Shown: one piece after another, positions 9,861 through 46,075 of the stretch
Layout of the letters: every line of letters begins with the position of its first letter
How positions within the stretch are numbered: the first letter of the stretch is position 1
Assembly (NCBI GenBank): GCA_951406725.2
Contig: OX597832.1
Span: 16,926,001-16,990,000, forward strand
Origin: Octopus vulgaris
Taxonomy: Eukaryota
DNA: 64,000 nt
Direction of reading: 5' to 3'
Translations under genes and position numbers: made by a program
The notes under the pieces: generated by a model
Seen by the model: the letters and a program-made list of their open reading frames with translations, nothing else
Database searches by the model: none
What the model was told of the DNA's origin: nothing

Positions 9861-10860
9861 TGTGTTTGACTTTTGCTTTGTATTCGTACAAGTTGGCTCC
9901 AAGTCTCACCTACATACCTCAAGAGACAAGCTAGAAGTTAATGTTGGTGATATACCTAGGGTGACATATGTTTGGTTTTTACATAGTATTGTTCTACAGA
10001 ATGTTTAAGAAAACATAAGAAAATTATGAGATTCTCCTAAAATTTGAGCATATATAGACTGTATTTTATGTAGCATATGGGCAGTTCCCATGAGCACTAT
10101 CTGTTGAATTTCCTGGTGTCTGAGCTAGGTAGCAATCGGCCACTTTTGCCATCATTCCTAGGGGACCTACAACAGGTATTCTTTTAGTCTTCAGGTTCCA
10201 CATTTTACCAATTTCTAATTCAAGATCGTTATACTTGCTCAGTTTATGGTAGGTATTCACAGATGCATTTATATCGATTGTGACGGTCATATCAATGACA
10301 AAGCATGATTTCTGTCTGTCCTATTTCTGTCAATTTGAAAGGTGAAGTTCCAGAGGAGGTGGTATGTATTTCCACCAGTTTTTTATGATGGGGCAAGTCC
10401 AGGTTTTTAGAAATTACCCAGTGAATATATTGTGCAACTCTATCATACCTGTTGAGATACTTTCTAGGAGCAAGAAGACTGCACATGGAGACAACATCAT
10501 CAATAGTTTCGCATTGTTGTTGACGTACACAACATGTTGGGGAGCTGCCGCTCTTTAATATATTGGCCTGGTAGTTTCTTGTAGGTAGGCATTGATATTG
10601 GTCTGCTTTGATAAGCGCTTCTGTTTCTGGTTTTAAGCCAGAAGCCATTAACCATTGATGAGTACGGGCTTTGTCAACATCGACATAATTAGCTCTCTTT
10701 TGGTATTTGCCATAGAGAGGTTTTTCTTGCCATTTATCAATACGAATATCTAAGGCAGCAGTTTTAGCACGGGTTTTCATACGTTTAGCTGTTTCTGTGC
10801 TCGTTTCTAGTAAGTGTAATTTTGATGTTTGTTGTATTTGGAATTGACTTATATATTCCT
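9861..10860 (-). mobile_element. R4/Dong-clade non-LTR retrotransposon 3' fragment (zinc knuckle, restriction-like endonuclease, 3' UTR), frameshifted
   Basis: ORFs 10292-10780 (WQEKPLYGKY...GLKPETEALI...TCCVRQQQCETIDDVVSMC...RYDRVAQYIHW) and 10066-10290 (KLSKYNDLELEIGKMWNLKTKRIPVVGPLG) are typical of RLE-type LINEs. The 3' end runs into (TAA)n. Confidence 0.85.
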
Positions 10861-11466
10861 TTTTGGAATTGACTTATATATTCCTGACATCAGACGAATA
10901 TCCCGATCTGTATTTCTACTTGTGGTTTAGGGTTCTCTAGCTAAGTCTAGTGAATCCTAAACCCCGAACCTACGTCTCATTTATTCTTCCTCGCCATTTA
11001 TTTTGCTTTCTTTCTTCATCCTTTTTTTATCCTTAATGTATCTTAGGTCCTTTCCCACTGCTCTAACATTACTATAATAAAAAATCACCTACACCCAACT
11101 CCAGCTTATCTAAGAACTCGTCTAACAGACTTTTTTCGCACCTTGGCCGCTAACCTTATATTTCCTCTTACTCTCTTTCACAAGCTATATCCTTAACTTC
11201 AACAGCGAACTCTGTTGGTCATTCTCCCATTTTATATTTAGCCCGAATAGACTCCACTCACGCCCTTGCTGTATTCTTTTGATATTCTTTTATTTACACA
11301 ATTACGTTTCATCTAAAGGTTACAGTTTGTGTAATGGAGTAATATTCTAATTCTTCTATTAAAATATGTGTATGAAACATATGTAATGAGTTGACGATTA
11401 TCCCTCGTATGACATATACACATCATTTTATTAGAATATAATACAATTCTGAACAATATCAATCTC

Positions 11467-12534: not shown

Positions 12535-12999
12535 TTTAAAACCAGAGTTACTTATATGTAATATTTACTTTACATGTCTCTGCGCGCGTGAGCTAATCTT
12601 TTGAAAGCTATGCTGAAAGATGATTAACGAAAACTGCTTAGTAATTACTAAAGGTGAATATTATGTCAACAATATTCGAACATAATGTATTTGTTTACAT
12701 AATACATTATGAACAGATAGACACGAGCCTATTCGAATAAAGTACTAACATTAACATATCAAAATTAGTTAACTACAAATTAAACAATTATTGAATTAAT
12801 TCTTAGTATTTTAACTTAATATTCCCAACTATTTTCTAAAAATATATTGCTAAGATACATACTTAAATTAAGATACGTTTAAATTTTATAAAATACATCT
12901 ACCTGTAAATAAAACCTTATGGTCATATTCATTTTATATTTTACGATTAATATATCTACCAAGAATTACTTAATCTTTATAGTTATAATTGTTAGTATA

Positions 13000-13498
13000 T
13001 CAATGACATGCATAAGATCTGGTCATCAAATCTAAGTAGAGACCTCAAACTTGAAATCTTCAAAGCCACAGTCGAACCAATTCTACTATATGGCTCAGAA
13101 ACTTGGACGTTGTCAAAGAAGCTTGAGAGGCGGTTGGATGGAACCTACACTCGCCTCCTTATGAGAGCTCAAAATCTCTCGTGGAAGCGCCATCCAACCA
13201 AAATGCAAATATATGGGAAACTACCACCTGTGTCATCTCTTGTGAAAGGTAGGAGAGTCCAGTTTGCTGGACATTGTTGTAGAGCTGAAAAAGAAGTAAT
13301 TTCTACTCTTCTCCTCTGGAAGCCATCTACTCGCAATACCAGAGGGCGCACACTCTCCTACCCTGATGTAATCTCCAGGGATACAGGCATCCAACAACAG
13401 GACCTCCGTAATGCCATGATGGACCGTGAAGTCTGGCGTAGCATGGTAAATTCCATTGCCTCGACCACGGTCGAACAATGATGGTGAATGATGATGAT
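13000..13498 (+). mobile_element. RTE-clade LINE 3' end with (TGA)n tail
   Basis: ORF 13008-13481 KIWSSNLSRDLKLEIFKATVEPILLYGSETWTL...FAGHC...AMMDREVWR, followed by tgatggtgaatgatgatga. Confidence 0.85.
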
Positions 13499-21700: not shown

Positions 21701-21703
<3 letters not shown>

Positions 21704-22270
21704 TGCAGGACATCACCAACTGTGATGAAGTACGAATACAAACGAGTTGAATACGCAAACAACTAGAGGAAACAAATGTAAAACAGGACAAGTAATACGG
21801 AGAACGACCCCTAATCAGTTGTCGTCTGTCTATCTACTCATTTCGCGCATTTAACGACAATAAGAGTATTCGAAGACGGTTGCTCCTATAAATTCCGAAA
21901 TAAAGTTTTGAATTTATGGAGGGTCAAAGTTGGGAATAAAAACGGGGCGGAGGAAATATACAAGGAAACCGAACGAAAACAAACATACAGGGTCGTTAGA
22001 CCAGAACGGGAGGAAATTAGTGAACACTGGGAAAAATATTTTCGTTGAAAAGAGAAAAGATAGGAGAGAGAGATAGAGAAGACATCCACTCCTTAGAGCG
22101 TCGTACAGGAAAAGAAGGGTGGTCACATGATGAAAAGAAAGTTGGGCAATGATTACATGTGAGCAACGAGAGAGAGGAAAAGAGAAAGGAGAGATTGTGA
22201 AAGATAGTAGACGGTGAAGGGGAGAAAAAGGGAATTACAGATGGATAGGGGAGAAAACAGTACAGAGTAG
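21701..22270 (-). mobile_element. Dispersed repeat family X (copy 1), ending in (TA)n, with a permuted hammerhead-like motif at 21806-21868
   Basis: Homologous to 33059-33235 (+) and organised like 44699-45127 (-). Shared 3' end gtcctgYRc next to a microsatellite. Confidence 0.65.
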
Positions 22271-29694: not shown

Positions 29695-29920
29695 GAAATA
29701 TTAAAATTACTAAGTCTCTCTAAAAGAGAACAACGGCAGCGTTTCCGGAAAATAATAGTTATCGTCATACTAATATGGCATTCTTATAAAAATAAGAACA
29801 AAGCTGTCCGCTTATTAGCTCCATGAGGCCATCGCCTTAAGTTAGCTATTTGATACACAAACTGTATCCATATAACCTTCGAACAAGGGAGGTCAGTCGC
29901 TCCACACTACTTGACCGGCA

Positions 29921-29962
29921 GCTACAGACGCGTTTCGGGGTATTGCCCCTTTTCAATGTAGC
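29921..29962 (-). ncRNA. Minimal type I hammerhead, U3-A8 core variant
   Basis: GCUACA-UUGAAAA-GGGG caaua CCCC-GAAA-CGCG-UC^-UGUAGC. Confidence 0.8.
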
Positions 29963-30283
29963 GTAGCCAGACCAGTAGGTGTCGCTTCTGACAATCTCTG
30001 TTCGAAGGTTTTATTTACCTAGCTTCGGTGGAATACATCCACTTGTTTTCAATAATAGAAATATTAAAATTACTAAGTCTCTCTAAAAGAGAACAACGGC
30101 AGCGTTTCCGAAAAATAATAGTTATCGCCATACTAATATGGCATTCTTATAAAAATAAGAATAAAGCTGTCCGCTTATTAGCTCCATGAGGCCATCGCCT
30201 TAAGTTAGCTATTTGATACACAAACTGTATCCATATAACCTTCGAACAAGGGAGGTCAGTCGCTCCACACTACTTGACCGGCA

Positions 30284-30325
30284 GCTACAGACGCGTTTCG
30301 GGGTATTGCCCCTTTTCAATGTAGC
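30284..30325 (-). ncRNA. Minimal hammerhead, U3-A8 variant, tandem copy 2
   Basis: Identical to 29921-29962, offset 363 nt. Confidence 0.8.
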
Positions 30326-30390
30326 GTTGCTAGGTAAATAAAACCTTCGAACAGAGATTGTCAGAAGCGACACCTACTGGTCTGGCTACG

Positions 30391-30430
30391 CTACATTGAA
30401 AAGGGGCAATACCCCGAAACGCGTCTGTAG
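30391..30430 (+). ncRNA. Minimal hammerhead, U3-A8 variant, inverted copy
   Basis: ctaca-ttgaaaa-ggggcaatacccc-gaaa-cgcg-tc-tgtag. Confidence 0.75.
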
Positions 30431-30594
30431 ATACCGGTCAAGTAGTGTGGAGCGACTGACCTCCCTTGTTCGAAGGTTATATGGATACAGTTTGTGTATC
30501 AAATAGCTAACTTAAGGCGATGGCCTCATGGAGCTAATAAGCGGACAGCTTTATTCTTATTTTTATAAGAATGGCATATTAGTATGGCGATAAC

Positions 30595-30662
<68 letters not shown>

Positions 30663-31800: not shown

Positions 31801-32546
31801 TAAAATAATAAAAAATATGAAAGACGTTTTCCGAAACGTAAGATTTTCCACCGAAACTCTCCTTCCATTTCACAGAACACTTTCCGCTAATTTTGCACGT
31901 CTTCCGGTGCAGGACCTCGACTGATCTTGAGAATCTGTTGTATATATTTATGCCTCTGTGTGTCTATGTGTACACATTTTTGTGTTTGTATATGTGTGAA
32001 TGCCTGCTTGTGTGCATGCGTATGTTAGCGTGTGTACATTAATGCATGTGTGTGCTTGTGCGTAAGAATATATGCTTGTGTGTATAGATGCGTGTTTAAG
32101 AAATCATTCACACACCCTTCTGATTTTTGTCCCAGTCTGCATCGCCATCATCATATCTGGCTTATTGTATAGCCTCGATTTAGCAAGATCTCGTGCATAG
32201 ACTACAGTGTGAGTTGGAAAGTTTGCAGAATCTCAGTAAAATACGAGCAATAATATCGAATGAAGAACAAACATAAAGAAAAAGAAAATGATTATACTAA
32301 AATATGACAATATTTGTTTCAGCGAAAGATTTCACAAGAGGAATCTTACAAAACGAATTCCTAAACGTTTGTATATATATATTTGTATATATGTATGTGT
32401 GTTTATCCCACACCATTGCTTGACAATTGATATTGGTGTGTTTACGTCCCTGTAAATTAAGCATGGAGCGTGTGTGTGTATATATATTGATAGATAGATA
32501 AAACAAACATGAGAGGATGCGTTGCGTTCAATCATATAATAATATA

Positions 32547-32581
<35 letters not shown>

Positions 32582-33058: not shown

Positions 33059-33235
33059 CGATGAATGTTCGAAATACGAGAATAGAAAAACAGCCAACAA
33101 CTGATGAATGGCCGTTCTTTATGTTGTTTGTTTTCTGTTCCATTTGCGTATTTCGTTGTTCGAAAGAATAGTTCATGTTCCATCTACTCGTGGTTCATAG
33201 TTTTTTGTTGTACACGTTTCGTGAAGTCCTGTGCA
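33059..33235 (+). mobile_element. Dispersed repeat family X (copy 2, 5'-truncated)
   Basis: aatgttcGAAAt...acagccaacaaCTGATGAatggccgttct...gtcctgtgc aligns with the reverse complement of 21701-21856. Confidence 0.65.
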
Positions 33236-33540
33236 TACATACATACATATATATATATATATGTATGTATGTATGTATGTATGGATGGATGTATGTATGT
33301 ATGTATGCACAGGACTCACACATATACAAACACAAACATGTGTTCACATAGACACAGAGTGGCATAAATACATACATATATATATATATGTATGTATATG
33401 TCTGTGTGTGTATGTAAGTATGCATTTATGTATGCATATATGTAAGTATAGGTGTAAGTTAGTACATATACGTATGTATATATGCTTATATAGATATATG
33501 CAGGAAATTTTAACACAGTTTCCTTTTTTTTTTCTTTTTG

Positions 33541-44576: not shown

Positions 44577-44618
<42 letters not shown>

Positions 44619-44698
44619 TAAAAGAAATAAAACATATGCATATATATAAACATATATGTACGTACCTACCTCTACATATACATATACACGCATATATG

Positions 44699-45127
44699 AG
44701 TACAGGACACCAAAGGGACGTCGAACACATAGAGAAACGAAAACATAGACACAAACCAAAGGAACAGGACACTTTTTAAAAAAACAAAAAATGGAGTACA
44801 GGACAGTTAACACAACGAAAAATCCCCTTCTTCAGTCGCTAAGGTTTCATCTACTCTACGTTTCGAAGGATAAAAGCGAGACGTATCTTCGACAAGAAAC
44901 TTTCCTTCCTGCGAAAAGCAAATCAATTAAAATTCTGAGATCTTTTCGCAGAGGGATAAAAAATGGTAAAAAAATGGTAAAAAAACGAGACAGTAACGAC
45001 AGTACAAAAATATAAAATACAAAAATATATATATAAACAGTAAAAAAAATATATATATAACAGTAAAAGACAGGACAGGGAGAACAAGATAAGAAGGGAC
45101 GCCGAACGAAAAGAGTATTGCAAACGC
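44699..45127 (-). mobile_element. Dispersed repeat family X (copy 3, divergent subfamily)
   Basis: Same layout as 21701-22270: pyrimidine-rich 5' part, permuted HHR motif, repeated tgtcctgt, 3' end gtgtcctgtac. Confidence 0.6.
44822..44885 (-). ncRNA. Candidate non-circularly permuted hammerhead ribozyme
   Basis: Minus strand: UACGU-C^-UCGCU-uuu-AUCCUUC-GAA-ACGUA-(16 nt)-AGCGA-CUGAAGA-A-GGGGAU. Stem III UACGU/ACGUA, stem I UCGCU/AGCGA, stem II rich in G-U pairs. Confidence 0.6.
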
Positions 45128-45510
45128 TATATATATATATATATATATATGCAGATATAAGAATTTAGCTAAACCAGTAATTCCTTTGGATATTTAATAT
45201 CCCTTAGGTGAATTTAACACGCTGCTAAATTTATAATTTTTGAAATAAGTATGATTATTCACTCATTACTTTATCATCAGTAAATATACGTATATGTCCT
45301 ATGTGGAATAATACTCGATAAAGGAAAATATAACAATTGACACATCTCTTAAAGACATACCGATACCACCAATCAATGTTTATATGAAAGGGTCAATTGC
45401 CAAAATAACAGAGTTCATACATAGACTGTGATGGAGAACGTTTTATTAAGATAAAGGCCAAACGGACTGCACTAATAACAATGTTCGTGAAATAATGAAG
45501 GAGATATGTC

Positions 45511-45754: not shown

Positions 45755-46075
45755 TAAATTAGAGACAAAACCACTATTATGCAAATCAAACAAAGAAAGA
45801 CTTAAGCCAATACATAAAATAATTTATATAAATTTAGAAATTTAACAATTATAAATAACCACTACGATCGTTTCATGTCGTTTCAAAACCAAGAAGGTTT
45901 TGAAACCACCTGAAGAATGTCTCAAAGATGTGTTGAAATAAGACATGAAACGATCGTAGTGGTTATTTATAATTGTTAAATTTCTAAATTTATATAAATT
46001 TTTTTAGGTATTGGCTTAAGTCTTTCTTTGTTTGATTTGCATAATAGTGGTTTTGTCTCTAATTTAATATAATAT
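45746..46075. repeat. Inverted repeat, ~134-bp arms (45746-45879 and 45942-46075), between (TA)n tracts
   Basis: attaaattagagacaaaaccac...ccactacgatcgtttcatgtc is mirrored with a few mismatches. Confidence 0.9.
45904..45964 (+). ncRNA. Type I hammerhead ribozyme (canonical core)
   Basis: AACCAC-CUGAAGA-AUGUCU...AGACAU-GAAA-CGAUCG-UA^-GUGGUU; stems I and II are 6 bp each. Confidence 0.85.

Follow-up and report, generated by a model that had tools for sequence, protein, structure and literature searches.

The window analyzed here, a 64,000-nt stretch of Octopus vulgaris contig OX597832.1, carries at 21703..22270 on the minus strand a copy of a non-coding Penelope-like unit that we designate family A. 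This copy is about 80% identical to its best 40 relatives. Relative to the full unit of ~690 nt, it lacks about 80 nt of the 5′ end, and its 3′ end passes into (TA)n. A young copy of a second family, B, lies at 44607..45128, also on the minus strand; it is 96-98% identical to its relatives and is 5′-truncated in (TA)n, the full unit being ~900 nt. A third, decayed A-like fragment occupies 33059..33240 on the plus strand, with similarity that begins ~4 nt 3′ of the cleavage site predicted below, and 32515-32560 on the minus strand holds 46 nt from the 5′ start of family A. The earlier note had called the 21.8 kb place a second copy of the one at 44.8 kb; the two are instead members of different subfamilies, one old (A) and one young (B). 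In the host genome, subfamily A yielded 44 matches from the best 40 of 4133 candidates, with the best places 79-83% identical, and subfamily B is 96-98% identical across the best 40 of 2506 candidates.

Units A (~690 nt) and B (~900 nt) are non-coding and are joined head to tail without an ORF. Their 3′ end is fixed in (TA)n, their 5′ ends vary, and both partial head-to-tail tandems and inverted 5′-truncated copies occur. The (TA)n target, the partial tandems and the inverted 5′-truncated copies are equally the layout of Naiads and Penelope-like elements (PLEs), as described in the part of PMC8557442 consulted. Two loci (L061 and L081) also have inversion junctions within the putative ribozyme region; that of L061 coincides exactly with the predicted cut, a place at which the two stem I strands complement each other. 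Upstream of the A-D copies in the 90 loci read, no sense-oriented PLE ORF (ORFs of at least 150 aa) was found, and a BLAST search of the Naiad-type majority against the window copies gave no match; because of these two results we only infer a Naiad-type mobilizing enzyme. The 30 Naiad-type loci examined reach at most ~600 nt upstream. PLE-like ORF fragments near two of the loci (L008 and L026) face the opposite way. Judging by architecture, target and the common fold described below, mobilization in trans by a Naiad-type enzyme appears likely.

The window holds further features in the neighborhood of these repeats. A canonical type I hammerhead is present at 45898-45975 on the plus strand, inside an inverted repeat at ~45760-46060 and beside an inverted 5′-truncated copy; its palindromic, loop-less stem III is the usual dimer-type PLE form. 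At 29752-30600 three near-identical copies of a ~310-nt unit can be recognized by eye, two in tandem and one inverted; each contains a fold resembling a type I hammerhead, except that U and A replace C and G at positions 3 and 8, a change that keeps the pair. ORF fragments at 10292-10873 (minus strand) and 12996-13481 (plus strand) presumably correspond to C-terminal parts of non-LTR retrotransposon proteins, which they resemble. A repeat finder run on the window gave output dominated by simple repeats, and an Rfam scan of the window gave 323 matches, of which the 150 listed included no hammerhead and were microsatellite matches to miRNA models.

Pairing analysis of the family A copy identifies a complete hammerhead-like motif at 21806..21925 on the minus strand, bounded by the two strands of a helix that we call X. 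In the 5′ to 3′ direction, the motif opens with the helix X 5′ strand (21920..21925), which pairs with 21811-21806 at 6/6 positions both here and in the A majority. Hairpin Y (21886..21919), with a single mismatch in this copy, lies between this strand and G10.1, where the stem II 5′ strand begins (21881..21885; its partner is 21849-21845, with an A.G mismatch at the second pair). Helix analysis places the distal stem III 5′ strand, together with the purine-rich strand of an internal loop, at 21867..21879, and the proximal stem III 5′ strand, U16.1 and H17 at 21861..21866, with the predicted cut after 21861. The stem I strand 3′ of the predicted cut (21855..21860) pairs with 21824-21819. By pairing analysis, 21837..21849 contains the stem II 3′ strand, GAAA and the proximal stem III 3′ strand. 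The remainder consists of a linker word at 21826..21836, which comprises the other internal-loop strand (with a 3-nt deletion in this copy) and the distal stem III 3′ strand, and of 21806..21824, which carries the second stem I strand, the CUGANGA core (G8 changed to U at 21813) and the helix X 3′ strand.

The earlier note had described a permuted hammerhead from the letters at 21868-21806 on the minus strand, and those letters and coordinates are correct. Reading both places confirmed that 44885-44822 (minus strand) has the same block order, that the linker word is common to the two, and that position 8 at 21813 is U. The proposed extent of 63 nt was too short, as the actual motif spans ~120 nt (21925-21806), with ~57 nt more on the 5′ side. 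All seven pairs of the 7-bp stem I that had been drawn are present, but the seventh arises from a C>A change private to the 21.8 kb copy, and helix I of the family has 6 bp. The pairs of the stem III drawn with 6 of 7 matches are likewise present, but the outer two depend on a private G>T change plus the 3-nt deletion, and the proximal stem III of the family has 5 bp. Three of the pairs that had been offered as covariation are thus private to a decayed copy.

Compared with the A majority, the 21.8 kb copy has G8>U at 21813 and is mispaired at the second position of stem II (A.G) and of stem III (U.U), which leaves 21806-21868 without an intact core. Further lesions are the 3-nt loop deletion, which occurs in 4/34 aligned family A copies, a G>T change in the loop, and one mismatch each in Y and distal stem III. 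We regard this copy as probably a mutated, inactive witness of a hammerhead-bearing repeat, predicted to be dead from its lesions, as had been proposed on the basis of G8U and a broken stem II. The accompanying prediction for the consensus was borne out in that the family majority regains CUGAUGA and a complete stem III. CUGAUGA is retained in 20/34 aligned family A copies, and 31/38 family B copies vs 2/13 family A copies parse as the full motif.

An intact motif of family B lies at 44823..44957 on the minus strand, where pairing analysis gives stems I, II and III of 5, 6 and 5 bp, helix X of 5 bp and hairpin Y with the 8/8 pairs shown (10 bp in the B majority); the predicted cut follows 44880. 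A plain S-G-C descriptor finds this copy, with 0 matches in 20 shuffles of the window, and misses the 21.8 kb copy because of the lesions there. When the 2.8 Gb host genome was searched with a pattern running from GAAA to CUGANGA, 2991 exact matches were obtained, compared with 0 for a backwards control. The upstream cleavage block, which was outside the search pattern, covaries with its stem I and stem III partners across A, B, B2-B4, C and D. The excess of matches and the covariation of a block left out of the pattern indicate that the block order is beyond chance.

The strands of the motif follow the order stem II (5′ strand), cleavage block, GAAA block, and stem I with CUGANGA. The 5-6 bases that precede GAAA find their partner in a segment that begins at G10.1, ~20-27 nt upstream of the predicted cut, and the tail after CUGANGA pairs farther upstream to form helix X, with hairpin Y filling the space from X to G10.1. 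Because the pre-GAAA strand pairs upstream and the tail closes a separate helix, the A9-G10.1 link of the hammerhead is replaced by helices X and Y. A9 is thus not connected to the stem II strand, either immediately or by a 1-2 nt linker: X adjoins A9 and Y adjoins G10.1, and both junctions are free of unpaired bases. Stem III is extended through the purine-rich internal loop, and the linker word forms one strand of this loop and the start of distal stem III. Other folds can be drawn in which the pre-GAAA strand pairs with the linker word or over G8-A9, and these were not adopted. Nested MFE folding chooses alternative folds in some families, and the knotted core is beyond its reach.

We tabulated pairing across seven family majorities (A, B, B3, B4, D, D2 and the Naiad-type N), omitting B1b, B2, C and C2, of which the C and C2 majorities are spoiled by truncated copies. 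Stems I, II and III each pair in 35/35 cells, with double changes at 4/5, 3/5 and 4/5 positions. Hairpin Y is paired in 26/28 cells with double changes at 4/4 positions, and helix X in 27/28 cells with a double change at 1/4 positions, so that its covariation inside the genome is weak. All 7/7 majorities retain CUGANGA, GAAA, A15.1-U16.1, H17 (A or C) and G10.1-C11.1 while the helices change. The earlier note had instead built stem II from the G-run after the core and the bases before GAAA; that pairing fills 26/28 cells with 14 G-U pairs and a double change at 1/4 positions, compared with 35/35 cells and 0 G-U pairs for the upstream stem II. The predicted duplex energy also prefers the upstream stem II in 7/7 families (-5.7 to -8.1 vs -3.1 to +0.9 kcal/mol).

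When the full structure was laid on 14 real copies (one to three per subfamily, with family A shifted by one column in the distal III strand, so that helix 4 comes out lower), 91% of 423 cells were paired and double changes occurred in 18/34 pairs. None of 500 shuffles reached this score and slid controls gave 41-49%, and for each of four majorities the full parse appeared in 0/200 shuffles. The shuffle control is blind to relatedness, and related sequences can beat shuffles without any structure; comparisons with distant Naiads therefore weigh more. Together these results support a non-circularly wired hammerhead fold for the master elements, in agreement with the earlier suggestion that the structure is under selection in the active element. 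On sequence grounds, the fold is one predicted to act like a hammerhead but to lie outside type SGC.

Naiads were reported to be without a canonical hammerhead, and some carry 'HHR_core' or 'HHR_half_core' marks, according to the part of PMC8557442 consulted. In the portions of File S5 of that paper that we covered, the split-core junction was recognized by eye in 7 of 54 published Naiad consensus ends: three from Acropora, one each from the Morbakka and crustacean parts of the file, where the placement rests on the part of the file in which the entry stands, and two from octopus. The file was covered by word search and by eye (60/62 places for one core word, 23/23 and 30/43 for two others), so that these counts are no census. 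These ends carry X, Y and a 6-bp upstream stem II built from entirely different sequences, with a single mismatch each in stems I and II of one Acropora end and 5/6 pairs of X in the octopus ends. In the Acropora, Morbakka-part and crustacean-part tails, as published there, no G is able to pair with C11.1 next to the core, and the stem II that had been drawn from the tail cannot form at the core in any of these three groups. The motif of an octopus Naiad end has 273 exact matches in the host genome, compared with 0 for the control.

Five nematode Naiad ends in the same portions of the file read by eye as type CSG, with full stems I, II and III plus a helix joining the flanks of I and II; two are Naiad-2_Nbra and Naiad-3_Nbra by the header that follows them, and three were placed by file position. 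Natural CSG sequences number only two in the available part of Eckert et al. 2023 (PMC10085705). As a separate observation, several arthropod Naiad ends in parts 16-19 of the consulted text of File S5 show CCCC-CUGANGA with other pairings and may represent further wirings.

Given these data, we think it fairly probable that the 21.8 kb copy is a decayed non-coding Penelope-like repeat whose master elements keep a hammerhead-like fold predicted to self-cleave after 21861, and that these elements are likely mobilized in trans by a Naiad-type enzyme. The core would be assembled from four strands, with X and Y standing in for the A9-G10.1 link. By kinking, the loop of arm III would bring the far ends of stems I, II and III together, and the core would presumably fold in one molecule. 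The kink-turn consensus consists of a 3-nt bulge followed by tandem G.A/A.G pairs. By eye, we take arm III of the octopus Naiad-type element to fit this consensus; the A-D loop may be read as a kink-turn in one register and, in the register favored by the distal helix, as what we take to be a bulged-G motif. The cut would set the 5′ end of the RNA template, and reverse transcriptase would therefore be expected to run off near it. A tandem transcript cut twice would yield an RNA of unit length, as has been proposed for PLE hammerheads in the sections of Cervera and de la Pena 2014 (PMC4209133) available to us.

The main rival to folding within one molecule is a core shared by two units, because some Naiad arms look too straight to fold back. 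Here the helices and the cut are the same, and the tip loop of stem III, which carries the cleavage block and the GAAA block, docks on a second unit at its X/Y multiloop, which supplies the stem II 5′ strand and CUGANGA, so that a tandem transcript or a dimer is needed. The Acropora and crustacean-section arms are a nearly unbroken duplex of 13-15 bp with linkers of 1-2 nt, and simple geometry suggests that they are hard to fold back within one molecule and that a symmetric dimer would close. The units are found in tandem, and minimal PLE hammerheads act as dimers according to the part of PMC4209133 consulted. However, in A-D and the octopus Naiad the proximal stem III has just 5 bp and then gives way to a conserved loop rich in purines, which seems to have been selected for bending. 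We judge the two-unit arrangement to be unlikely, although it is the strongest of the alternatives, and prefer a core folded within one molecule.

If the masters cleave themselves, the 5′ ends of truncated copies should bear on it, and these ends accumulate from the equivalent of 21861..21866 3′-wards. We counted 52 copies in 50 loci that were picked regardless of their 5′ ends (30 first listed and 20 for subfamily variety). Thirteen have their start in the first 13 nt on the 3′ side of the predicted cut, the five 12-nt bins that follow hold 1, 2, 1, 2 and 1, and 32 begin further up (p ~4e-6). Among copies abutting (TA)n within 30 nt, inspection by eye puts the start of 32/35 distinct listed B-D loci at the predicted cut or 3′ of it. 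In family A (n=47), 38 ends are at the predicted cut or on its 3′ side, 6 lie up to 3 nt on its 5′ side and 3 are beyond; the 6 just 5′ involve microhomology, with one truly running on upstream, which gives 38-43 overall. The breakpoints are scattered over 0 to +12, and TA microhomology biases the placement of the 25/47 family A ends that fall at +9 to +11. With the biased positions removed, family A has 13 ends in 8 nt (0 to +7) vs 3-4 in the 16 nt from -4 to -19. Truncated copies also begin frequently further 3′, with 167 one-strand matches per 30-nt window under a looser anchor, vs 216 near the predicted cut. The truncation step at the predicted cut is as expected if the motif cuts in vivo and suggests an indirect footprint of cleavage.

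The same distribution could arise from a conserved fold that does not cut, such as a protein-binding element or one that arrests reverse transcriptase, with the pile-up produced by stalling and TA microhomology. Most breakpoints indeed lie several bases 3′ of the predicted site, many of them at TA/AT microhomology; we found no tested precedent for a break adjoining A9; and in B-D the pre-GAAA strand could pair over G8-A9, an inactive register. Against this, the step itself lies at the predicted cut once the biased family A positions are set aside, and every catalytic position is kept in the seven majorities even as the helices change, which makes a non-cutting element improbable. An ordinary type-SGC hammerhead, with stem II formed by the tail after CUGANGA (leaving one extra A) and the bases before GAAA, is the least probable and was rejected: it can be drawn in 51/56 cells (91%), above most shuffles (5/500), and an extra base after A9 is known from PLE hammerheads in the consulted part of PMC4209133, but half of its pairs are G-U with 1 double change, slid controls reach 61-80%, both strands have better partners, and three distant Naiad groups do not allow it at the core.

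We retain a split core that would cut itself, and we speculate further, with a little less than an even chance of being right, that Naiads at large carry non-circular hammerheads: the split core in cnidarians, crustaceans, cephalopods and these non-coding families, and CSG in nematodes. On this broader proposal the split core cuts in vivo, and the X/Y insert at A9-G10.1 acts as a switch that delays assembly of the core until the last strand, or a tandem pair, is made. The cut would then free a unit-length, possibly circular template, which would explain the pseudo-LTR tandems.

If true, this would be a hammerhead topology beyond the six block orders deemed possible in the available text of Eckert et al. 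2023 (PMC10085705), because the fold breaks a block that was taken as indivisible. It would also place non-circular hammerheads in animal genomes in thousands of copies, and it would explain why Naiads seemed to be free of hammerheads in the consulted sections of Craig et al. 2021 (PMC8557442). The role of PLE ribozymes would gain a natural test, in that the genome's own truncated copies bear a footprint at the predicted cut. The window itself supplies an intact natural copy of the motif at 44.8 kb that could be assayed unchanged, with the 21.8 kb copy as its decayed witness.

In the literature outside subscription journals, we found no description of split-core wiring, nor of non-circular hammerheads in PLEs. 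The available parts of Perreault 2011 and Forgia 2023 show no helix inserted between A9 and G10.1, and the consulted part of PMC13725137 holds no such case either. Among the closest known systems is type SGC (HRIMA-1 and variants), described in the part of PMC10085705 available to us, which shares the order of cleavage block, GAAA block and CUGANGA, the crossing of stems I, II and III with one another, and a short linker from I to II. In that source, CUGANGA and its adjacent paired strands are taken as inseparable (block C). The split-core fold separates the strands of block C and is therefore not type SGC: block C is contiguous there, whereas here a stem II strand is placed 5′ of the cleavage block and the link gives way to two additional helices. 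Their provenance also differs, since type SGC is reported in that text beside hairpin ribozymes in metatranscriptomes and from searches of RefSeq, metagenomes and metatranscriptomes, and the split core is found in thousands of animal genomic repeats.

As repeats, units A and B resemble the animal non-LTR retrozymes and the PLE type I minimal hammerheads (PMC4209133; 10.64898/2026.07.22.740005, as far as the consulted parts go) in being non-coding, PLE-derived tandem units with one hammerhead each. They are unlike them in wiring and size, for retrozymes have a type I hammerhead with a tiny stem III, and units A and B have knotted wiring, a long stem III and lengths of ~690-900 nt. Families A and B do not show the type I (CGS) block order within a unit, and the available part of Li et al. 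2026 (10.64898/2026.07.22.740005) deals with type I hammerheads only. Naiads, in the portion of Craig et al. 2021 (PMC8557442) consulted, differ from units A and B in coding capacity, encoding an EN-RT with an N-terminal GIY-YIG and a C-terminal RT, where units A and B are non-coding.
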